DNA from: Escherichia coli
GTDB taxonomy: Bacteria > Pseudomonadota > Gammaproteobacteria > Enterobacterales > Enterobacteriaceae
Strand: one strand, 5' to 3'
DNA length: 64,000 bases
NCBI RefSeq assembly: GCF_046105845.1
Contig: NZ_CP151004.1
In this document: positions 9,101 through 63,748 of the stretch, piece after piece
Position numbering within the stretch: position 1 is the stretch's first letter
Layout of the letters: each line of letters starts with the position of its first letter
Notes under the pieces: model-generated
What the model was told of the DNA's origin: nothing
Seen by the model: only the letters and a program-made list of their open reading frames with translations
The model's database searches: none
Translations under genes and position numbers: made by a program

Positions 9101-11974
9101 ATGACACAGACGTTAAGCCAGCTTGAAAACAGCGGCGCTTTTATTGAACGCCATATCGGACCGGACGCCGCGCAACAGCAAGAAATGCTGAATGCCGTTG
9201 GCGCACAATCGTTAAACGCGCTGACCGGCCAGATTGTGCCGAAAGATATTCAGCTTGCGACCCCGCCGCAGGTTGGCGCACCGGCGACCGAATACGCCGC
9301 GCTGGCGGAACTCAAGGCTATTGCCAGTCGCAATAAACGCTTCACGTCTTACATCGGCATGGGTTACACCGCCGTGCAGCTACCGCCGGTTATTCTGCGT
9401 AACATGCTGGAAAATCCGGGCTGGTATACCGCGTATACTCCGTATCAACCTGAAGTCTCCCAGGGCCGCCTTGAAGCACTGCTCAACTTCCAGCAGGTAA
9501 CGTTGGATTTAACCGGGCTGGATATGGCCTCTGCTTCTCTTCTGGACGAAGCCACCGCTGCCGCCGAAGCAATGGCGATGGCTAAACGCGTCAGCAAACT
9601 GAAAAATGCCAACCGCTTCTTCGTGGCTTCCGATGTGCATCCGCAAACGCTGGATGTGGTCCGTACTCGTGCCGAAACCTTTGGTTTTGAAGTGATTGTC
9701 GATGACGCGCAAAAAGTGCTCGACCATCAGGACGTCTTCGGCGTGCTGTTTCAGCAGGTCGGCACTACCGGTGAAATTCATGACTACACTGCGCTTATCA
9801 GCGAACTGAAATCACGCAAAATTGTGGTCAGCGTCGCCGCCGATATTATGGCGCTGGTGCTGTTAACTGCGCCGGGTAAACAGGGCGCGGATATTGTCTT
9901 TGGTTCGGCGCAACGCTTTGGCGTACCGATGGGCTACGGTGGCCCACATGCGGCATTCTTTGCGGCGAAAGATGAATACAAACGCTCAATGCCGGGCCGT
10001 ATTATCGGTGTATCGAAAGATGCAGCTGGCAATACCGCTCTGCGCATGGCGATGCAGACTCGCGAGCAACATATTCGCCGTGAGAAAGCGAACTCCAACA
10101 TTTGTACTTCCCAGGTACTGCTGGCAAACATCGCCAGCCTGTATGCCGTTTATCACGGCCCGGTTGGCCTGAAACGTATCGCTAACCGCATCCACCGTCT
10201 GACCGATATCCTGGCGGCGGGCCTGCAACAAAAAGGTCTGAAGCTGCGTCATGCGCACTATTTCGACACCTTGTGTGTGGAAGTGGCCGACAAAGCGGGC
10301 GTACTGACGCGTGCCGAAGCGGCTGAAATCAACCTGCGTAGCGATATCCTGAACGCGGTTGGGATCACCCTTGATGAAACCACCACGCGTGAAAACGTGA
10401 TGCAGCTTTTCAGCGTGCTGCTGGGCGATAACCACGGGCTGGAGATCGACACGCTGGATAAAGACGTGGCTCACGACAGCCGCTCTATTCAGCCTGCGAT
10501 GCTGCGCGACGACGAAATCCTCACCCATCCGGTGTTTAATCGCTACCACAGCGAAACCGAAATGATGCGCTATATGCACTCGCTGGAGCGTAAAGATCTG
10601 GCGCTGAATCAGGCGATGATCCCGCTGGGTTCCTGCACCATGAAACTGAACGCCGCCGCCGAGATGATCCCAATCACCTGGCCGGAATTTGCTGAACTGC
10701 ACCCGTTCTGCCCGCCAGAACAGGCCGAAGGTTATCAGCAGATGATTGCGCAGCTGGCTGACTGGCTGGTGAAACTGACCGGTTACGACGCCGTTTGTAT
10801 GCAGCCGAACTCTGGCGCACAGGGCGAATACGCGGGCCTGCTGGCGATTCGTCATTATCATGAAAGCCGCAACGAAGGGCATCGTGATATCTGCCTGATC
10901 CCGGCATCTGCCCACGGCACTAACCCCGCTTCCGCGCATATGGCGGGGATGCAGGTGGTGGTTGTGGCGTGTGATAAAAACGGCAATATCGATTTGACTG
11001 ATCTGCGCGCGAAAGCGGAACAGGCGGGCGATAACCTCTCCTGTATCATGGTGACCTATCCTTCCACCCACGGCGTGTATGAAGAAACGATCCGTGAGGT
11101 GTGTGAAGTCGTGCATCAGTTCGGTGGTCAGGTTTACCTTGATGGCGCGAACATGAACGCTCAGGTTGGCATCACCTCGCCGGGCTTTATTGGTGCGGAC
11201 GTCTCGCACCTTAACCTGCATAAAACTTTCTGCATTCCGCACGGTGGTGGTGGTCCGGGTATGGGACCGATCGGCGTGAAAGCGCATCTGGCACCGTTTG
11301 TACCGGGTCATAGCGTGGTGCAAATCGAAGGCATGTTAACCCGTCAGGGCGCGGTTTCTGCGGCACCGTTCGGTAGCGCATCTATTCTGCCAATCAGCTG
11401 GATGTACATCCGCATGATGGGCGCAGAAGGGCTGAAAAAAGCAAGCCAGGTGGCAATTCTTAACGCCAACTATATTGCCAGCCGCCTGCAGGATGCTTTC
11501 CCGGTGCTGTATACCGGTCGCGACGGTCGCGTGGCGCACGAATGTATTCTTGATATTCGTCCGCTGAAAGAAGAAACCGGCATCAGCGAACTGGATATTG
11601 CCAAGCGTCTGATCGACTACGGTTTCCACGCGCCGACCATGTCATTCCCGGTGGCGGGTACGCTGATGGTTGAACCGACCGAATCCGAAAGCAAAGTGGA
11701 ACTGGATCGCTTTATCGACGCGATGCTGGCTATCCGCGCAGAAATTGACCAGGTGAAAGCCGGTGTCTGGCCGCTGGAAGATAACCCGCTGGTGAACGCG
11801 CCACACATTCAGAGCGAACTGGTCGCCGAGTGGGCGCATCCGTACAGCCGCGAAGTTGCAGTATTCCCGGCAGGCGTGGCAGACAAATACTGGCCAACAG
11901 TGAAACGTCTGGATGATGTTTACGGCGACCGTAACCTGTTCTGCTCCTGCGTACCGATTAGCGAATACCAGTAA
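9101..11974 (+). CDS. gcvP: Glycine dehydrogenase (decarboxylating), glycine cleavage P protein
   Basis: Internal ATG at 9101 gives [35 protein letters not shown]..., 957 aa; the track ORF start at 9017 runs through the upstream palindrome. Confidence 0.94.
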
Positions 11975-11996
11975 TTTACTGATTCGACTATCTTCT

Positions 11997-12020
11997 AAAG
12001 GCGCTTCGGCGCCTTTTTAG
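11997..12020 (+). terminator. Rho-independent terminator of gcvTHP operon
   Basis: aaaggcgcttcggcgcctttttag: perfect GC-rich hairpin followed by T5. Confidence 0.8.
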
Positions 12021-12053
12021 TCAGATGACAAAGTACAAAAGTGCTCAGACAGT

Positions 12054-12155
12054 CCCCTCGCCCCTTTGGGGAGAGGGTTAGGGTGAGGGGAACAGGCCGG
12101 CACTGGCGCGAATATTTACCCTCACCCCGGCCCTCTCCCTGAAAGGGCGAGGGGG
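12054..12155. repeat. About 100-bp GC-rich imperfect palindrome (dispersed intergenic repeat-like)
   Basis: Arms cccctcgcccctttggggagagggttagggtgagggg and ccctcaccccggccctctccctgaaagggcgaggggg are near reverse complements of each other. Confidence 0.6.
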
Positions 12156-12240
12156 AAAAGCGTGCCAACATTGAAGATTGAGCCAGTTTGTTAGCAATCT
12201 AAAAGATACGTCAACGAATTAATTTTTCCAGGAAAAACAA

Positions 12241-12984
12241 TTGGCTATAGCACTTGTGACCGGTGGCAGTCGCGGCATCGGGCGGGCAACTGCATTACTG
12301 TTGGCGCAAGAAGGGTATACGGTGGCGGTTAATTATCAGCAAAACCTCCACGCGGCGCAGGAAGTGGTGAACTTAATCACGCAAGCCGGTGGCAAGGCAT
12401 TCGTGCTCCAGGCGGATATCAGCGACGAAAATCAGGTCGTCGAGATGTTTACCGCAATCGATCTGCACGATGAACCGCTAGCTGCACTGGTCAATAACGC
12501 CGGGATCTTGTTTACCCAGTGCACCGTAGAAAACCTTACCGCAGAGCGAATCAACCGGGTACTTTCCACCAATGTGACGGGACATTTTCTCTGTTGCCGC
12601 GAGGCGGTAAAACGCATGGCGCTGAAAAATGGCGGTAATGGCGGTGCTATCGTCAACGTCTCTTCAGTGGCCTCACGGCTGGGATCTCCGGGGGAATACG
12701 TTGATTATGCGGCATCGAAAGGGGCGATTGATACGTTAACCACAGGGCTGTCGCTGGAAGTCGCTGCGCAAGGAATTCGCGTTAATGGCGTGCGGCCCGG
12801 TTTTATCTATACCGGAATGCACGCCAGCGGTGGCGAACCTGGACGCGTTGATCGCGTTAAGTCGAACATCCCCATGCAGCGCGGTGGGCAGGCGGAAGAG
12901 GTCGCGCAGGCCATCGTCTGGCTGTTAAGTGATAAAGCCTCTTATGTCACGGGAAGTTTTATCGATTTGGCGGGCGGAAAATAA
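12241..12984 (+). CDS. ygfF: Short-chain dehydrogenase/reductase (SDR) family oxidoreductase
   Basis: TTG start; (M)AIALVTGGSRGIGRATALLL... with the TGxxxGxG Rossmann motif; 247 aa. Confidence 0.85.
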   Translation: MAIALVTGGSRGIGRATALLLAQEGYTVAVNYQQNLHAAQEVVNLITQAGGKAFVLQADISDENQVVEMFTAIDLHDEPLAALVNNAGILFTQCTVENLTAERINRVLSTNVTGHFLCCREAVKRMALKNGGNGGAIVNVSSVASRLGSPGEYVDYAASKGAIDTLTTGLSLEVAAQGIRVNGVRPGFIYTGMHASGGEPGRVDRVKSNIPMQRGGQAEEVAQAIVWLLSDKASYVTGSFIDLAGGK

Positions 12985-13002
12985 GATGGGAAAGTTATCT
13001 GA

Positions 13003-13033
13003 CCGGATGCAACACAATTGGCGTTGCATCCGG
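13003..13033. terminator. Palindromic hairpin between convergent ygfF and bglA (probable bidirectional terminator / REP-like)
   Basis: ccggatgcaacacaattggcgttgcatccgg, perfect 11-bp arms. Confidence 0.5.
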
Positions 13034-13045
13034 CACATCAGATAA

Positions 13046-14506
<1,461 letters not shown>

Positions 14507-19921: not shown

Positions 19922-21655
19922 GTGAAACAACAGATACAACTTCGTCGCCGTGAAGTCGATGAAACGGCCGACTTGCCCGCTGAATTGCCTCCCTTGCTGC
20001 GCCGTTTATATGCCAGCCGGGGTGTGCGTAGCGCGCAGGAACTGGAACGCAGTGTTAAAGGCATGCTGCCCTGGCAGCAACTGAGCGGCGTCGAAAAGGC
20101 CGTTGAGATCCTTTACAACGCTTTTCGCGAAGGAACGCGGATTATTGTGGTCGGTGATTTCGACGCCGACGGTGCCACCAGCACGGCTCTAAGCGTGCTG
20201 GCGATGCGCTCGCTTGGTTGCAGCAATATCGACTACCTGGTTCCAAACCGTTTCGAAGACGGTTACGGCTTAAGCCCGGAAGTGGTCGATCAGGCCCATG
20301 CCCGTGGCGCGCAGTTAATTGTTACCGTGGATAACGGTATTTCCTCCCATGTGGGGGTTGAACACGCTCGTTCGTTGGGCATTCCGGTTATTGTTACCGA
20401 TCACCATTTGCCGGGCGACACATTACCCGCAGCGGAAGCGATCATTAACCCTAACTTGCGCGACTGTAATTTCCCGTCGAAATCACTGGCAGGCGTGGGT
20501 GTGGCGTTTTATCTGATGCTGGCGCTGCGCACCTTTTTGCGCGATCAGGGCTGGTTTGATGAGCGCGGCATCGCAATTCCTAATCTGGCAGAACTGCTGG
20601 ATCTGGTAGCGTTGGGGACAGTGGCGGACGTCGTGCCGCTGGACGCTAATAATCGCATTCTGACCTGGCAGGGGATGAGTCGCATCCGTGCCGGAAAGTG
20701 CCGTCCAGGGATTAAAGCGCTGCTGGAAGTGGCAAACCGTGATGCACAAAAACTCGCCGCCAGCGATTTAGGTTTTGCGCTGGGGCCACGTCTCAATGCT
20801 GCCGGGCGACTGGACGATATGTCCGTCGGTGTGGCGCTGTTGCTGTGCGACAACATCGGCGAAGCGCGCGTGCTGGCAAATGAACTCGATGCGCTAAACC
20901 AGACGCGAAAAGAGATCGAACAAGGAATGCAAGTTGAAGCCCTGACCCTGTGCGAGAAACTGGAGCGCAGCCGTGACACGCTACCCGGCGGGCTGGCAAT
21001 GTATCACCCCGAATGGCATCAGGGCGTTGTCGGCATTCTGGCTTCGCGCATCAAAGAGCGTTTTCACCGTCCGGTTATCGCGTTTGCGCCAGCAGGTGAC
21101 GGTACGCTGAAAGGTTCCGGTCGCTCCATTCAGGGGCTGCATATGCGTGATGCGCTGGAGCGATTAGACACACTCTACCCCGGCATGATGCTCAAGTTTG
21201 GCGGTCATGCGATGGCGGCGGGTTTGTCGCTGGAAGAGGATAAATTCGAACTCTTTCAACAACGGTTTGGCGAACTGGTTACTGAGTGGCTGGACCCTTC
21301 GCTATTGCAAGGCGAAGTGGTGTCAGACGGTCCGTTAAGTCCAGCCGAAATGACCATGGAAGTGGCGCAGCTGCTGCGCGATGCTGGCCCGTGGGGGCAG
21401 ATGTTCCCGGAGCCGCTGTTTGACGGTCATTTCCGCCTTCTGCAACAACGACTGGTAGGCGAACGCCATTTGAAGGTCATGGTTGAACCGGTCGGCGGCG
21501 GCCCGCTGCTGGACGGCATTGCCTTTAACGTTGATACCGCCCTTTGGCCGGATAACGGCGTGCGCGAAGTGCAACTGGCTTATAAGCTTGATATCAACGA
21601 GTTTCGCGGCAATCGCAGCCTGCAAATTATCATCGACAATATCTGGCCAATTTAG
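19922..21655 (+). CDS. recJ: Single-stranded-DNA-specific 5'-3' exonuclease RecJ
   Basis: GTG start 5 nt after the dsbC stop; 577 aa; DHH motifs (VVGDFDADGATS, VTDHH). Confidence 0.93.
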   Translation: MKQQIQLRRREVDETADLPAELPPLLRRLYASRGVRSAQELERSVKGMLPWQQLSGVEKAVEILYNAFREGTRIIVVGDFDADGATSTALSVLAMRSLGCSNIDYLVPNRFEDGYGLSPEVVDQAHARGAQLIVTVDNGISSHVGVEHARSLGIPVIVTDHHLPGDTLPAAEAIINPNLRDCNFPSKSLAGVGVAFYLMLALRTFLRDQGWFDERGIAIPNLAELLDLVALGTVADVVPLDANNRILTWQGMSRIRAGKCRPGIKALLEVANRDAQKLAASDLGFALGPRLNAAGRLDDMSVGVALLLCDNIGEARVLANELDALNQTRKEIEQGMQVEALTLCEKLERSRDTLPGGLAMYHPEWHQGVVGILASRIKERFHRPVIAFAPAGDGTLKGSGRSIQGLHMRDALERLDTLYPGMMLKFGGHAMAAGLSLEEDKFELFQQRFGELVTEWLDPSLLQGEVVSDGPLSPAEMTMEVAQLLRDAGPWGQMFPEPLFDGHFRLLQQRLVGERHLKVMVEPVGGGPLLDGIAFNVDTALWPDNGVREVQLAYKLDINEFRGNRSLQIIIDNIWPI

Positions 21656-21745
21656 CGTCATCTTCTCTATAAAAAAGAGCGTGGATTGGGTACAATCCCG
21701 CTCTTATCACCGCATTTTGACTAGCTCAAGAAAAGAAATCAGACC

Positions 21746-22844
21746 ATGTTTGAAATTAATCCGGTAAATAATCGCATTCAGGACCTCACGGAACGCTCCG
21801 ACGTTCTTAGGGGGTATCTTTGACTATGACGCCAAGAAAGAGCGTCTGGAAGAAGTAAACGCCGAGCTGGAACAGCCGGATGTCTGGAACGAACCCGAAC
21901 GCGCACAGGCGCTGGGTAAAGAGCGTTCCTCCCTCGAAGCCGTTGTCGACACCCTTGACCAAATGAAACAGGGGCTGGAAGATGTTTCTGGTCTGCTGGA
22001 ACTGGCTGTAGAAGCTGACGACGAAGAAACCTTTAACGAAGCCGTTGCTGAACTCGACGCTCTGGAAGAAAAACTGGCGCAGCTTGAGTTCCGCCGTATG
22101 TTCTCTGGCGAATATGACAGCGCCGACTGCTACCTCGATATTCAGGCGGGGTCTGGTGGTACGGAAGCACAGGACTGGGCGAGCATGCTTGAGCGTATGT
22201 ATCTGCGCTGGGCAGAATCGCGTGGTTTCAAAACTGAAATCATCGAAGAGTCGGAAGGTGAAGTGGCGGGTATTAAATCCGTGACGATCAAAATCTCCGG
22301 CGATTACGCTTACGGCTGGCTGCGTACAGAAACTGGCGTTCACCGCCTGGTGCGTAAGAGCCCGTTTGACTCCGGCGGTCGTCGCCACACGTCGTTCAGC
22401 TCCGCGTTTGTTTACCCGGAAGTTGATGACGATATTGATATCGAAATCAACCCGGCGGATCTGCGCATCGACGTTTATCGCGCGTCCGGCGCGGGCGGTC
22501 AGCACGTTAACCGTACCGAATCTGCGGTGCGTATTACCCACATCCCGACCGGGATCGTGACCCAGTGCCAGAACGACCGTTCCCAGCACAAGAACAAAGA
22601 CCAGGCCATGAAGCAGATGAAAGCGAAGCTTTATGAACTGGAGATGCAGAAGAAAAATGCCGAGAAACAGGCGATGGAAGATAATAAATCTGATATCGGC
22701 TGGGGCAGCCAGATTCGTTCTTATGTCCTTGATGACTCCCGCATTAAAGATCTGCGTACCGGGGTAGAAACCCGCAACACGCAGGCCGTGCTGGACGGCA
22801 GCCTGGATCAATTTATCGAAGCAAGTTTGAAAGCAGGGTTATGA
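21746..22844 (+). CDS. prfB: Peptide chain release factor 2, translated with a programmed +1 ribosomal frameshift at codon 25/26
   Basis: Frame 0 reads [25 protein letters not shown] then TGA at 21821-21823; the +1 frame from 21822 continues [18 protein letters not shown]... to the stop at 22844 and contains the GGQ motif ([11 protein letters not shown]). Confidence 0.92.
21809..21824 (+). promoter_or_regulatory. prfB autoregulatory +1 frameshift site (internal SD-like AGGGGG, slippery CUU UGA C)
   Basis: Sequence agggggtatctttgac is present exactly in the canonical arrangement. Confidence 0.9.
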
Positions 22845-22853
22845 GGAACCAAC

Positions 22854-24371
22854 ATGTCTGAACAACACGCACAGGGCGCTGACGCGGTAGTCGATCTTAA
22901 CAATGAACTGAAAACGCGTCGTGAGAAGCTGGCGAACCTGCGCGAGCAGGGGATTGCCTTCCCGAACGATTTCCGTCGCGATCATACCTCTGACCAATTG
23001 CACGCAGAATTCGACGGTAAAGAGAACGAAGAACTGGAAGCGCTGAACATCGAAGTTGCCGTTGCTGGCCGCATGATGACCCGTCGTATTATGGGTAAAG
23101 CGTCTTTCGTTACCCTGCAGGACGTGGGGGGCCGCATTCAGCTGTACGTTGCCCGTGACGATCTGCCGGAAGGCATTTACAACGAGCAGTTCAAAAAATG
23201 GGACCTCGGCGACATCCTCGGCGCGAAAGGTAAACTGTTCAAAACCAAAACTGGCGAACTGTCTATCCACTGCACCGAGCTGCGTCTGCTGACCAAAGCA
23301 CTGCGTCCGCTGCCGGACAAATTCCACGGCTTGCAGGATCAGGAAGCGCGCTATCGTCAGCGTTATTTGGATCTCATCTCTAACGATGAATCCCGCAACA
23401 CCTTTAAAGTGCGCTCGCAGATCCTCTCTGGTATTCGCCAGTTCATGGTGAACCGCGGCTTTATGGAAGTTGAAACGCCGATGATGCAGGTGATCCCAGG
23501 CGGTGCCGCTGCGCGTCCGTTTATCACCCACCATAATGCGCTGGATCTCGACATGTACCTGCGTATCGCGCCGGAACTGTACCTCAAGCGTCTGGTGGTC
23601 GGTGGCTTCGAGCGTGTATTCGAAATCAACCGTAACTTCCGTAACGAAGGTATCTCCGTACGTCATAACCCAGAGTTCACCATGATGGAACTCTATATGG
23701 CTTACGCGGATTACAAAGATCTGATCGAGCTGACCGAATCGCTGTTCCGTACTCTGGCACAGGATATTCTCGGTAAGACGGAAGTGACCTACGGCGACGT
23801 GACGCTGGACTTCGGTAAACCGTTCGAAAAACTGACCATGCGTGAAGCGATCAAGAAATATCGCCCGGAAACCGACATGGCAGATCTGGACAACTTCGAC
23901 TCTGCGAAAGCGATTGCTGAATCTATCGGTATCCACGTTGAGAAGAGCTGGGGTCTGGGCCGTATCGTTACCGAGATCTTCGAAGAAGTGGCAGAAGCAC
24001 ATCTGATTCAGCCGACCTTCATTACTGAATATCCGGCAGAAGTTTCTCCGCTGGCGCGTCGTAACGACGTTAACCCGGAAATCACAGACCGCTTTGAGTT
24101 CTTCATTGGTGGTCGTGAAATCGGTAACGGCTTTAGCGAGCTGAATGACGCGGAAGATCAGGCGCAGCGCTTCCTGGATCAGGTTGCCGCGAAAGACGCA
24201 GGCGACGACGAAGCGATGTTCTACGACGAAGATTATGTCACCGCACTGGAACATGGCTTACCGCCGACAGCAGGTCTGGGAATTGGTATCGACCGTATGG
24301 TAATGCTGTTCACCAACAGCCATACCATCCGCGACGTTATTCTGTTCCCGGCGATGCGTCCGGTGAAATAA
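22854..24371 (+). CDS. lysS: Lysine--tRNA ligase (constitutive)
   Basis: 505-aa class II aa[38 protein letters not shown]...; start 7 nt after the prfB stop. Confidence 0.94.
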
Positions 24372-24389
24372 GCATTACGTTATGCTCAC

Positions 24390-24416
24390 AACCCCGGCAA
24401 ATGTCGGGGTTTTTTA
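24390..24416 (+). terminator. Rho-independent terminator of prfB-lysS (overlaps the idi stop codon; probably bidirectional)
   Basis: aaccccggcaaatgtcggggtttttt: 7-bp GC-rich stem followed by T6. Confidence 0.8.
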
Positions 24417-24962
24417 ATTGTGCTGCGCGAAAGCAGACAACAATTTTCTTGCTTCACTATTGGCTGCCTGCATCACCATCCACGGACTGAACGCCCACGG
24501 TGTGGCATCAATACCGTGTAATACATCTGCTAAATCACACCATTGATAATCCATCACTTCATCATCGTTGATCTGTAATGCACTGGTCGTGCGTGCGGCA
24601 AATACCGGACACACTTCATTTTCCACAATGCCATTCGGATCGGTGGCGCGATAGCGAAAGTCAGGATAGATAGATTCAGGAGGCGTAATTTCCACGCCAA
24701 GCTCATAACGGCAACGGCGGATCACCGCGTCTTCGTTGCTTTCGCCCAGTTGTGGGTGCCCACAAACCGAGTTAGTCCACACGCCCGGCCACGCTTTTTT
24801 GCTAAGGGCGCGGCGAGTAACTAATAATTGCCCTTTGGCATTAAACAGCCAACTGGAGAACGCGAGATGTAAGAGAGTGTCTGCCGTGTGTGCGGCATAC
24901 TTTTCCAGCGTACCCGTGGGAACTCCCTGTGCATTCAATAAAATGACGTGTTCCGTTTGCAT
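24414..24962 (-). CDS. idi: Isopentenyl-diphosphate delta-isomerase (Nudix type 1)
   Basis: 182-aa [44 protein letters not shown]... Confidence 0.92.
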
Positions 24963-58787: not shown

Positions 58788-58861
58788 GCGGGCGTAGTTC
58801 AATGGTAGAACGAGAGCTTCCCAAGCTCTATACGAGGGTTCGATTCCCTTCGCCCGCTCCA
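58788..58861 (+). tRNA. glyU: tRNA-Gly (anticodon CCC)
   Basis: 74 nt: acceptor stem gcgggcg/cgcccgc, anticodon loop cttCCCaag, T-arm ggttcgattcc, and 3' end ...tcca (CCA not encoded). Confidence 0.93.
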
Positions 58862-59081
58862 ATTTATCTTCACCGCATCAACCTGTCATTTTTGTTGTAT
58901 CTTATTTTCCATATTATCTTAATTCAATCGCTTCAGACTTTTCGCAATCGCCGAAATACTTCCCCATTTTTTTGTAAATAAAAGCGTTTACGCAATGCAA
59001 TCCATTTGTAACAACCCAGGTAAAATACCTTATTTTCAAGTTGTTAAATAAGTGGTTATCTACGCTTTTAACAAACGATTG

Positions 59082-60704
59082 ATGGAATCTTTTATGAAAG
59101 GGAAATCTACATTAACTCTTCTGCTCGCTGGTATATTTTCATGCGGCACATGCCAGGCGACAGGGGCAGAAGTGACGAGTGAATCTGTATTTAACATTCT
59201 TAATTCCACGGGGGCAGCAACTGATAAAAGTTATTTATCGTTAAATCCAGATAAGTATCCTAATTATCGTCTTCTGATTCACTCAGCCAAATTAAAAAAT
59301 GAAATAAAGAGCCACTATACCAAAGACGAAATTCAAGGATTGTTAACATTAACAGAAAATACACGAAAGTTAACGTTGACGGAGAAACCCTGGGGAACAT
59401 TTATTCTTGCTTCTACTTTCGAAGATGACAAAACAGCGGCAGAAACCCACTATGATGCTGTCTGGCTGAGGGATAGTTTATGGGGCTATATGGCATTAGT
59501 ATCAGAACAGGGAAATAGTGTAGCCGCAAAAAAGGTTCTGCTCACTCTGTGGGATTATATGTCTACGCCCGACCAGATTAAGCGGATGCAGGATGTCATT
59601 AGCAACCCAAAACGACTGGATGGAATTCCCGGGCAAATGAATGCTGTGCATATCCGATTTGACAGCAACTCCCCCGTGATGGCAGATGTGCAGGAAGAAG
59701 GCAAGCCGCAGCTGTGGAACCATAAACAAAATGATGCTTTAGGTCTTTATCTTGATCTCCTTATACAAGCAATCGACACTGGTACTATTAACGCTGAAGA
59801 CTGGGAAAAAGGTGACCGATTAAAATCGATTGCGCTGTTGGTTGCTTATCTGGATAAAGCCAATTTCTATGTTATGGAAGATTCCGGAGCGTGGGAAGAA
59901 GATGCCAGATTAAACACATCTTCCGTTGCACTGGTGACCTCTGGACTGGAACGTTTGTCGAACTTACTCTCGAAGAAAGACTCTGTTTTTATCTCTGATT
60001 TACTACGCGAAGCTAAAGCCAATGAACTGGATGAAACTCTTTCAACAACGAGGTTGAACCATCTCATAGATAAAGGGTATGAAAGAATAACGCTACAGCT
60101 TGATTTAGGGGGAGAATCCCCTGGTTATCTGGAAAAAGATAAACATTACAGAGAAGCTGATGCGGCCTTACTTAATGTTATTTATCCTGCAAATCTTTCA
60201 AAGATAAATACCAGAAGAAAAGAGCAAGTTCTAAAAATAGTTAAAAAACTAGCAGGTCCGTATGGTATAAAAAGATACGAGAAGGATAATTATCAGTCGG
60301 CAAATTTTTGGTTCAATGATATTAAAACTGATACTGATGAAAATTCACATGCGAAAAGAGAAAAGAGCTTCATTCCATCAACAGAAGCAGAATGGTTTTT
60401 TGACTCATGGTATGCAAAATCAGCAGCAATTGTTTATAAAGAATCAAGAAAAGAAGAATATTTGAATGACTCAGTGCAATTTATGAATAGATCATTGGCC
60501 CAAATAACAGGCGAGAATATGATTGGTGCAAATGGCAGGAGCGTACCTGAAATGGCACTTCCCGAAAGCTATAACTATATCCACAAGTCAGGAACTTTGC
60601 ATGAAGCGCCAAGCCCTATCATTCCGCTAAACTGGTCGAAAGCCTCAATGACTCTTATGTTGAAAGAAATGTCCAACCTTATCAATGATGAGGGAATTAA
60701 ATAG
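59082..60704 (+). CDS. Secreted glycoside-hydrolase-like protein, GH15 (glucoamylase-like) motifs
   Basis: Signal peptide MKGKSTLTLLLAGIFSCGTCQA; motifs AVWLRDSLWGY and EDSGAWEEDARLN resemble the GH15 substrate-binding Arg and catalytic acid regions. Start ambiguous (ATG at 59082 or 59094). Probably corresponds to the ygeQ locus, which is a pseudogene in K-12. Confidence 0.6.
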   Translation: MESFMKGKSTLTLLLAGIFSCGTCQATGAEVTSESVFNILNSTGAATDKSYLSLNPDKYPNYRLLIHSAKLKNEIKSHYTKDEIQGLLTLTENTRKLTLTEKPWGTFILASTFEDDKTAAETHYDAVWLRDSLWGYMALVSEQGNSVAAKKVLLTLWDYMSTPDQIKRMQDVISNPKRLDGIPGQMNAVHIRFDSNSPVMADVQEEGKPQLWNHKQNDALGLYLDLLIQAIDTGTINAEDWEKGDRLKSIALLVAYLDKANFYVMEDSGAWEEDARLNTSSVALVTSGLERLSNLLSKKDSVFISDLLREAKANELDETLSTTRLNHLIDKGYERITLQLDLGGESPGYLEKDKHYREADAALLNVIYPANLSKINTRRKEQVLKIVKKLAGPYGIKRYEKDNYQSANFWFNDIKTDTDENSHAKREKSFIPSTEAEWFFDSWYAKSAAIVYKESRKEEYLNDSVQFMNRSLAQITGENMIGANGRSVPEMALPESYNYIHKSGTLHEAPSPIIPLNWSKASMTLMLKEMSNLINDEGIK

Positions 60705-60769
60705 TTTTCATAATGAGGCGGTCCTGGATTAAAAGGACCGCTCAAAGAGAAATCGTAAGGGAGGTAAAA

Positions 60770-60949
60770 GTGATCAATAAATTACTGTTAGCTTACCTGA
60801 TAGGTCTGGTTGTGACATCGACCTTAATATTTATCTTCTCGGAAGAAAAAGTAACATATCGGTTGTTTGCTGCAGTAATTACAGGGTTGACCTGGCCGCT
60901 TAGCCTCATTCCATCCATCATAAGTCTCATGATTCGTAAATCCGACTAA
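60770..60949 (+). CDS. Small (59-aa) two-helix membrane protein
   Basis: Strong SD aagggagg 6 nt upstream of GTG 60770; two hydrophobic segments (LLLAYLIGLVVTSTLIFIF; LFAAVITGLTWPLSLIPSIISLMI). The track ORF from 60713 lacks an SD. Confidence 0.45.
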   Translation: MINKLLLAYLIGLVVTSTLIFIFSEEKVTYRLFAAVITGLTWPLSLIPSIISLMIRKSD

Positions 60950-61294
60950 CAAGAAAATTATATGAACGATTAAGAAAAATAGAATCGAAAAAGAGAATAA
61001 AATATATGCGGGGAGTAACAAAACACTCGCAGTACGTTAATGTGTAACTAACAAATATGATTTTTATTGAAAATAGTCACCAAACAAGTGTTATAAGAAA
61101 TACGGGGTATGTTTAAGTAAAACATATCAACAGTTGCAATTCTGTATATGGACAGGATGACTTACTACTGTAAGTGGCTGATAGCTATTCGCTCATAACA
61201 AAATCATTATTTTATAAATAGTAATCATCACTTTTTAATCATGTTTTTATAGCAAGTTTATGGAGAATGAGAATATGGAATAAGGAGATGAAAC

Positions 61295-62044
61295 ATGATT
61301 GAAGAAGGGCTGTTACTTCCAATGAATGTTTTGCTTCAAGGACAGAAGTTAACCCTACTGGACCCTGAAATGTGGTTCTTACGGGGAAATGAAAACAAGG
61401 ATGTAACCCTTGTTATTACGATTGGTAATAACCATCAAAAATTAATGGTAGTGGAAGATATATTACTGCTCATTGACCGAAGCCAAATTGAGGTAACTGC
61501 AGGGAAAGTAATTTATCATCCACTTCGCATTGATATCCTGAGTAAATTATTAGCTTTTATAGATGAATCAACGGGGAGTGTGGAAAGGGAACACCATGAA
61601 TTGTTTGCTGATGCCTTGCCCTTTGCATCAGAAGTTGTGCTATTCAGTAAAGTTGCAAGTGAAGCCTGGTTTTTAGCCACTTATCTGAGCAGCGATAATA
61701 TTAATGAAATTCTGTTTCAGCATCTAAGAAAAACAGAATGCTATAAACTGGTTCGCTATTTATTATCGCAATCGCTCATACAGACTTCACTCTATGATCT
61801 TGGTGAGCTTTACGGCGTATCGTATTCACATTTTCGCCGTTTATGTAGTTATGCATTGGGTGGTAAAGTTAAAACGGAATTATGTGGCTGGAGAGTTGCC
61901 AGAGCCGTGTTGGAAATCATTGAAGGAAACAGTGATATGACAACTATTGCGCATAAATATGGCTACTCATCCTCATCACACTTTTCAGCCGAAGTAAAAA
62001 GCCGGTTAGGAAAAACACCGAGAGAACTATGTAAAAAGTTATGA
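61295..62044 (+). CDS. eivF: AraC-family T3SS transcriptional activator (InvF-like)
   Basis: 249 aa; C-terminal AraC HTH (TIAHKYGYSSSSHFSAEVKSRLGKTPREL); SD aaggag upstream; stop overlaps the secretin start (ATGA). Confidence 0.7.
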   Translation: MIEEGLLLPMNVLLQGQKLTLLDPEMWFLRGNENKDVTLVITIGNNHQKLMVVEDILLLIDRSQIEVTAGKVIYHPLRIDILSKLLAFIDESTGSVEREHHELFADALPFASEVVLFSKVASEAWFLATYLSSDNINEILFQHLRKTECYKLVRYLLSQSLIQTSLYDLGELYGVSYSHFRRLCSYALGGKVKTELCGWRVARAVLEIIEGNSDMTTIAHKYGYSSSSHFSAEVKSRLGKTPRELCKKL

Positions 62045-63744
62045 AAATAAAATTACGTATTACTATTATATTAATTTCAGCCTTATGCATTTTTAATGGA
62101 TTATTGACTCCTGGTGCATATGCCGCAACAGCGAATGGATACGTAGCAAATAAAGAAAATCTACGTAGTTTTTTTGAAACGGTTTCATCATATGCGGGTA
62201 AGCCTACAATAGTAAGTAAGCTTGCCATGAAGAAACAGATCAGCGGAAATTTTGATTTAACCGAACCCTATGCCTTGATTGAACGCCTGTCGGCGCAGAT
62301 GGGACTTATTTGGTACGATGATGGCAAAGCTATTTATATCTATGACTCATCAGAGATGCGTAATGCGCTGATTAATCTGAGAAAGGTATCGACGAATGAG
62401 TTTAATAATTTTTTAAAAAAATCGGGTCTGTATAACTCTCGTTATGAAATTAAAGGGGGCGGCAATGGTACTTTCTATGTATCGGGGCCACCAGTTTATG
62501 TTGACCTGGTCGTTAATGCTGCAAAATTAATGGAGCAAAACAGTGATGGCATCGAGATCGGACGCAATAAAGTAGGGATTATTCACCTGGTCAACACATT
62601 CGTTAATGATCGGACTTATGAATTACGTGGCGAAAAGATAGTTATTCCTGGCATGGCAAAAGTACTATCGACGTTGTTAAATAATAACATTAAGCAAAGC
62701 ACTGGGGTTAACGTACTTTCTGAAATTTCAAGTCGTCAACAACTAAAAAACGTATCACGTATGCCTCCTTTTCCTGGTGCTGAAGAAGATGATGATCTAC
62801 AAGTAGAGAAAATAATATCGACAGCTGGAGCGCCAGAGACTGACGATATACAAATTATTGCATATCCTGATACCAACAGTTTACTTGTTAAAGGAACAGT
62901 ATCTCAGGTTGATTTTATCGAGAAGTTAGTAGCTACACTCGATATTCCAAAGCGACACATTGAATTATCTTTATGGATAATAGATATTGATAAGACTGAT
63001 TTAGAACAGTTAGGAGCTGACTGGTCGGGCACGATAAAAATTGGATCCAGCCTAAGTGCATCATTTAATAATTCAGGTTCAATTAGTACCCTGGATGGGA
63101 CACAGTTTATTGCAACAATACAGGCACTTGCGCAAAAAAGAAGAGCCGCCGTTGTTGCTCGTCCTGTCGTTTTAACACAGGAGAATATTCCTGCTATATT
63201 TGATAATAACCGTACTTTCTATACTAAATTAGTCGGCGAGCGTACTGCGGAGTTGGATGAAGTAACCTATGGTACGATGATTAGCGTGCTACCACGATTT
63301 GCTTCGCGAAATCAAATTGAATTACTCTTGAATATTGAAGATGGCAATGAAATCAATTCTGACAAGACCAATGTTGATGATCTGCCTCAGGTTGGTAGAA
63401 CGCTTATAAGTACTATTGCGCGCGTGCCTCAAGGGAAAAGTCTTTTGATTGGTGGATATACACGAGATACGAATACCTATGAAAGTCGCAAGATCCCAAT
63501 ATTAGGCAGTATTCCATTTATTGGTAAATTATTTGGATATGAAGGAACAAATGCGAATAACATCGTTCGTGTCTTTCTTATTGAGCCAAGAGAGATCGAT
63601 GAGCGCATGATGAATAATGCGAATGAGGCTTCGGTTGACGCCAGAGCAATAACACAGCAAATGGCAAAAAATAAAGAAATCAACGATGAATTACTGCAGA
63701 AATGGATAAAAACTTACCTGAATCGTGAAGTCGTCGGAGGATAG
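62041..63744 (+). CDS. eivG: Type III secretion outer-membrane secretin (SctC / InvG family)
   Basis: 567 aa; signal peptide; secretin C-domain motifs (VPILGSIPFIGKLFG). Confidence 0.8.
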   Translation: MKIKLRITIILISALCIFNGLLTPGAYAATANGYVANKENLRSFFETVSSYAGKPTIVSKLAMKKQISGNFDLTEPYALIERLSAQMGLIWYDDGKAIYIYDSSEMRNALINLRKVSTNEFNNFLKKSGLYNSRYEIKGGGNGTFYVSGPPVYVDLVVNAAKLMEQNSDGIEIGRNKVGIIHLVNTFVNDRTYELRGEKIVIPGMAKVLSTLLNNNIKQSTGVNVLSEISSRQQLKNVSRMPPFPGAEEDDDLQVEKIISTAGAPETDDIQIIAYPDTNSLLVKGTVSQVDFIEKLVATLDIPKRHIELSLWIIDIDKTDLEQLGADWSGTIKIGSSLSASFNNSGSISTLDGTQFIATIQALAQKRRAAVVARPVVLTQENIPAIFDNNRTFYTKLVGERTAELDEVTYGTMISVLPRFASRNQIELLLNIEDGNEINSDKTNVDDLPQVGRTLISTIARVPQGKSLLIGGYTRDTNTYESRKIPILGSIPFIGKLFGYEGTNANNIVRVFLIEPREIDERMMNNANEASVDARAITQQMAKNKEINDELLQKWIKTYLNREVVGG

Positions 63745-63748
63745 TGAA

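Follow-up and report, generated by a model that had tools for sequence, protein, structure and literature searches.

Escherichia coli is the species in which the programmed +1 frameshift of prfB was discovered. The frameshift of the K-12 gene, together with the autoregulation of its product, the peptide chain release factor RF2 (release factor 2), reportedly received its first description from Craigen and Caskey in the 1980s. Slippery sequences at which recoding is aided by an internal Shine-Dalgarno-like element are likewise found in dnaX and in the IS1 and IS3 transposases. Unlike prfB, however, these systems shift in the -1 direction, contain no stop codon sensed by their own product, and have their Shine-Dalgarno-like element at another spacing. 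The prfB motif has been found in 64% of 12,753 genomes, and its consensus, based on 8,164 genomes, consists of AGGGGG, a 3-nt spacer, CTTT, TGA and C (PMC12421855).

The DNA analysed here is a 64-kb stretch (the window). Positions 21746-22844 of its plus strand are almost certainly E. coli prfB, encoding peptide chain release factor 2 with the canonical programmed +1 ribosomal frameshift. As such, the gene is already known: among bacteria it serves as the type example of programmed +1 frameshifting, and public annotation records it. The site belongs to none of the -1 classes represented by dnaX, IS1 and IS3. The IS1 programmed-frameshift transposase annotated in E. coli SMS-3-5 was not found in the part of the window that is colinear with that genome.

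The prfB gene of E. coli K-12 shares with the window the 16-mer AGGGGGTATCTTTGAC, the position of the recoded codon (26), the product length of 365 aa and the gene order recJ-prfB-lysS. It differs in having C at position 21827, where the window has T, and Thr at RF2 residue 246, where the window encodes Ala. The prfB gene of E. coli SMS-3-5 (NC_010498.1, ECSMS35_RS15260, WP_001701073.1) showed 100% nucleotide identity over window positions 21600-22950, and five other complete genomes among those listed were also 100% identical over this 1351-nt prfB region. In RefSeq, the SMS-3-5 gene is a two-piece CDS with the note "programmed frameshift", and its positions convert exactly to window 21746-22844. 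Based on BLAST, the whole window had about 98% identity to SMS-3-5; the two differ by an insertion at 12021-13025 and diverge after 58861, and the window therefore comes from another strain. The possibility that the window is SMS-3-5 itself was rejected, since the overall identity is about 98% despite 100% at prfB.

Architecture of the frameshift site and its reading frames

The features of the locus are as follows.

19922-21655, plus strand: recJ, the upstream neighbour
21746-21820, plus strand: prfB segment 1, frame 0, codons 1-25, ending with CUU (Leu25); residues 1-25 identical to E. coli RF2; first piece of the RefSeq CDS
21809-21814, plus strand: internal Shine-Dalgarno-like element AGGGGG, with a role known from the literature (PMC12421855)
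21815-21817, plus strand: 3-nt spacer UAU, the Tyr24 codon, between the Shine-Dalgarno-like element and the slippery codon
21818-21821, plus strand: slippery run CUU_U, where peptidyl-tRNA-Leu would re-pair from CUU (21818-21820) to UUU (21819-21821), a mechanism taken from the literature
21821-21824, plus strand: stop codon TGA (21821-21823) with its 3' C (21824), i.e., UGAC
21822-22844, plus strand: prfB segment 2, +1 frame, codons 26-365 (DYDAKK...KAGL) and the stop codon TGA (22842-22844)
21827-21829, plus strand: a further frame-0 TGA, two codons past the first one, containing the synonymous T of Tyr27 at 21827
22854-24371, plus strand: lysS, lysine--tRNA ligase, beginning 9 nt past the prfB stop codon

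The sequence at the site reads ...GTT CTT AGG GGG TAT CTT TGA CTA TGA CGC..., and AGGGGGTATCTTTGAC occupies 21809-21824 of the plus strand. It is present as a single copy in the window when both strands are searched, even with two mismatches allowed, and dinucleotide-preserving shuffles gave a mean of 0.01 matches by chance. In frame 0 it is read as AGG (21809-21811), GGG (21812-21814), TAT (21815-21817), CTT (21818-21820) and TGA (21821-21823), followed by C at 21824. All five elements, namely AGGGGG, the 3-nt spacer, CUU, UGA and C, are thus present with the right spacing. The TGA is codon 26 of the frame opened by ATG 21746, i.e., a premature stop of the RF2-specific type, and the C directly 3' of it gives the weak terminator UGAC. 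The codon directly 5' of the stop is CTT, and the next base is T 21821, which gives the slippery CUUU. The AGGGGG element lies 3 nt 5' of the slippery codon and, by base complementarity, could form five Watson-Crick pairs and one G-U pair with the CCUCCU of the 16S rRNA 3' end. Its 3-nt distance from the slippery codon agrees with the conserved spacing described earlier (PMC12421855). When the entire window was compared with Rfam using gathering thresholds, no family matched the frameshift site, which is a short linear element; this result speaks neither for nor against the assignment.

The initial annotation had described the autoregulatory +1 frameshift motif of prfB, AGGGGG/UAU/CUU/UGA/C, as present and intact. 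Its coordinates proved exact, and both the motif and the +1 shift were borne out; the word "autoregulatory" is backed by what has been published for this same site in E. coli (PMC12421855) rather than by the sequence alone.

The two prfB segments are both multiples of three. The first (21746-21820) comprises 75 nt, or 25 codons, while the second (21822-22844) begins with GAC 21822 and comprises 1023 nt, or 340 codons and the stop. In the +1 frame, the open stretch begins no earlier than 21768, and its first ATG, GTG or TTG is ATG 21963. Consequently, mechanical ORF listing on this strand yields only a 25-aa piece (21746-21823) and a 293-aa piece (21963-22844). This agrees with the earlier remark that the ORF track contains just the downstream 293-aa piece and that naive calling splits RF2. 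Furthermore, because no start codon occurs in the +1 frame between 21768 and 21963, residues 26-72 are unobtainable by ordinary initiation. The conserved 365-aa protein is reachable solely via a +1 shift at CUU_U, with reading resumed at GAC 21822. The gene is intact, and the slip site at codon 26 is unbroken. Taken at the level of sequence, all the defining features of the prfB frameshift class that were tested appear in this locus.

The joined product, its conservation and other readings of the frame break

The initial annotation had proposed joining 21746-21820 to 21822-22844 and aligning the product with RF2. The joined translation is 365 aa long. In a search of all PDB chains, it aligned without gaps from residue 1-365 to residue 1-365 of the E. 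coli RF2 chains 1gqe_A (801 bits) and 1ml5_Z (801 bits), with E of about 1e-240, so that the proposed join held through the junction. The junction itself, ...RGYL|DYDAKK..., is identical in both chains. These two best chains each differ from the joined product by one substitution. In 1gqe it falls within ...KLYE(L/V)EMQ..., and in the K-12-type chain 1ml5_Z it is at position 246, which is Ala here and Thr in the chain. The NCBIfam model TIGR00020 (prfB), which has a cut-off of 370, gave the joined product 525.9 bits, whereas the RF1 models reached 304-306 bits, under their cut-offs of 400 and 423. The Pfam domains PCRF and RF-1 were both found in it. The SPF tripeptide, an RF2 hallmark that serves stop-codon recognition, comprises residues 205-207 (22359-22367), and the GGQ motif, which serves hydrolysis, comprises residues 250-252 (22494-22502). 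Residue 246 is Ala, encoded by GCG at 22482-22484. Ala246 is the usual E. coli allele outside K-12 and surpasses in activity the Thr246 of K-12 strains, for which weaker termination activity and a dependence on PrmC methylation have been reported (PMC5373646).

Of 5426 complete E. coli genomes, 5425 contained the 1351-nt prfB region (21600-22950), each as one copy. In 5399 of these 5425 genomes, the 101 nt surrounding the site showed at least 99% identity, and the 16-nt motif was invariant in an alignment with K-12 MG1655 and the weakest-scoring genome listed. It should be noted that the prfB region had no match in one of the 5426 genomes and that in one E. coli genome the match was on a plasmid-labelled record.

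A scan of one genome per species (298 Gb) for AGGGGGTNNCTTTGAC gave at least 120 loci. At each locus, frame 0 upstream of the stop was joined to frame +1 downstream, and the product was compared with the RF2 of the window. According to the record titles, the matches listed came from Gammaproteobacteria, Bacillus, Staphylococcus, Streptococcus, Bacteroidia, Omnitrophota, Chlorobiota and cyanobacteria. Among the matches listed, 104 of the 120 loci encode prfB/RF2 at the site, and in 102 of those 104 a single HSP to RF2 runs through the junction with 28-88% identity. TAT was the commonest spacer (63 of the 120 cross-species matches listed). For the other 16 of the 120 loci among the matches listed, no RF2 match lay close by. 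Of these, L013 and L073 cannot be judged, as the site lies within about 110 bases of the end of the stored DNA. The remaining 14 without RF2 homology (L006, L014, L024, L032, L034, L048, L059, L060, L061, L085, L086, L096, L113 and L120) are consistent with chance matches to 14 specified bases in 298 Gb. The frame change is kept in the orthologues of other species and so is not a strain-specific lesion.

Three other readings of the locus were considered. One extra base that splits a frame looks just like an indel error or a pseudogene, and the break could in principle be a sequencing or assembly artefact or a real 1-base insertion inactivating prfB. We regard this as very improbable. The break falls exactly on the canonical 16-nt recoding motif, and 5425 of the 5426 complete E. 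coli genomes share it at this very site, as do, among the matches listed, 102 loci of other species from many lineages. A frame break at the same codon over such a wide phylogenetic range rules out a sequencing error or a strain-specific lesion. In addition, both halves are intact, with one substitution in 365 residues relative to RF2, and RF2 is required for reading UGA. There is just as slight a chance that the 293-aa ORF beginning at the internal ATG 21963 encodes the functional protein and that the 25-aa ORF upstream of it specifies a leader peptide with no relation to RF2. The ORF listing does give precisely these two pieces, but over residues 1-72 the joined product is identical to the solved full-length E. 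coli RF2 in its N-terminal domain. Moreover, 21822-21962 is open in the +1 frame, so that a start at 21963 would lose conserved RF2 sequence, and the joined products of other species align across the junction.

The third reading, in which readthrough or selenocysteine insertion lets the ribosome continue past the UGA in frame 0 without any +1 shift, has a practically negligible probability. It draws on the facts that UGA can serve as a selenocysteine codon and is leaky in the UGAC context. However, RF2 homology past the UGA was found in the +1 frame only, while frame 0 continues after the UGA with CTA and then TGA (21827-21829). In-frame readthrough cannot yield RF2, because this second frame-0 TGA ends it. 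Based on the conservation, the RF2 alignment and the second frame-0 TGA, all three of these readings (pseudogene, internal start and in-frame readthrough) were rejected. The reading followed below is prfB with its programmed +1 frameshift, which none of the data contradict.

Neighbourhood of prfB and other features of the window

The spacer between recJ and prfB extends over 21656-21745. In SMS-3-5, according to RefSeq, xerD, dsbC and recJ are found upstream of prfB and lysS downstream of it; idi occupies the opposite strand. Judging by their spacing, prfB and lysS are probably co-transcribed. A consensus scan of 21500-24600 found a terminator-like hairpin after lysS at 24390-24411. A simple scan of the same interval found no sigma-70-like consensus promoter upstream of prfB; its sole promoter-like match lies inside prfB, and the match count was under the shuffle expectation. 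A GC-containing hairpin was also seen just past the recJ stop codon at 21683-21698 (GGATTG...CAATCC nested in AAGAGCG...CGCTCTT), and according to the scan it is terminator-like on the minus strand only.

The Rfam matches in the whole window were 6S RNA, Sib RNA and one tRNA only. The Sib antitoxin RNA (136.5 bits) is at 1177-1327 and the 6S RNA ssrS (139.8 bits) at 1976-2159, both on the minus strand. SMS-3-5 has ibsC, a type I toxin gene, between fau and serA, where the Sib match is expected. A tRNA-Gly(CCC) lies at 58788-58861, and colinearity with SMS-3-5 stops exactly at its 3' end. Beyond it (58862-64000), the best-matching strains (99.1%) have genes for a glycoside hydrolase of family 15, a GhoT/OrtT-family toxin, an HTH regulator, sctC and a type III secretion gatekeeper. 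This region (58862-64000) looks like the ETT2 island inserted at a tRNA. At the corresponding place, SMS-3-5 carries an IS1A element and yqeH.

The segment 12021-13025 is missing from SMS-3-5; in matching strains it contains ygfF, encoding an SDR-family oxidoreductase, between gcvP and bglA. A 2-kb query (11500-13500) was covered by at least 80% in only 3051 of 5426 E. coli genomes, with a median of 6 matching places per genome. Such a median means that the query contains some dispersed repeat.

Proposed mechanism and the variant at position 21827

Based on published E. coli work on the identical site, in which frameshift efficiency drops with rising RF2 concentration (PMC12421855), we infer the following autoregulatory mechanism for the prfB of the window. 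Ribosomes starting at ATG 21746 would translate 25 codons, after which CUU (Leu25) would occupy the P site and the UGA (21821-21823) the A site. This stop, in its weak UGAC context, would be decoded only by RF2, so that a ribosome would pause at it if RF2 is in short supply. AGGGGG, located 3 nt upstream of the slippery codon, would then pair with the anti-Shine-Dalgarno sequence of the 16S rRNA and displace the E-site tRNA. Subsequently, the peptidyl-tRNA-Leu would slip from CUU to UUU, GAC would be decoded, and the 365-aa RF2 would be completed. When RF2 is abundant, termination at the UGA would release a 25-residue peptide, and RF2 would thereby limit its own synthesis by negative autoregulation.

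In the alignment around the site, K-12 MG1655 and the window differ by one synonymous base, 21827, which lies beyond the 16-nt motif. The window has T at this position, while K-12 MG1655 and one other strain have C, and the Tyr27 codon is accordingly TAT or TAC. The T/C polymorphism at 21827 exists and is common in E. coli. Most E. coli genomes are apparently one base off the window within the 101 nt around the site, and this base was confirmed to be 21827 in two genomes. In frame 0, the T creates the tandem stop UGA CUA UGA, whereas K-12 reads UGA CUA CGA. It is conceivable, though we consider it a long shot, that the tandem stop acts as a backstop for readthrough at UGAC or slightly alters the balance of termination and frameshifting relative to K-12-type alleles. 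If that were true, the site would be a naturally occurring variant whose regulation differs measurably.

The locus makes no addition to the biology of prfB, as the identical sequence is already annotated likewise by RefSeq. Its importance lies solely in annotation: a prfB that is apparently divided between a 25-aa and a 293-aa ORF is not to be counted as a pseudogene or a truncated RF2.
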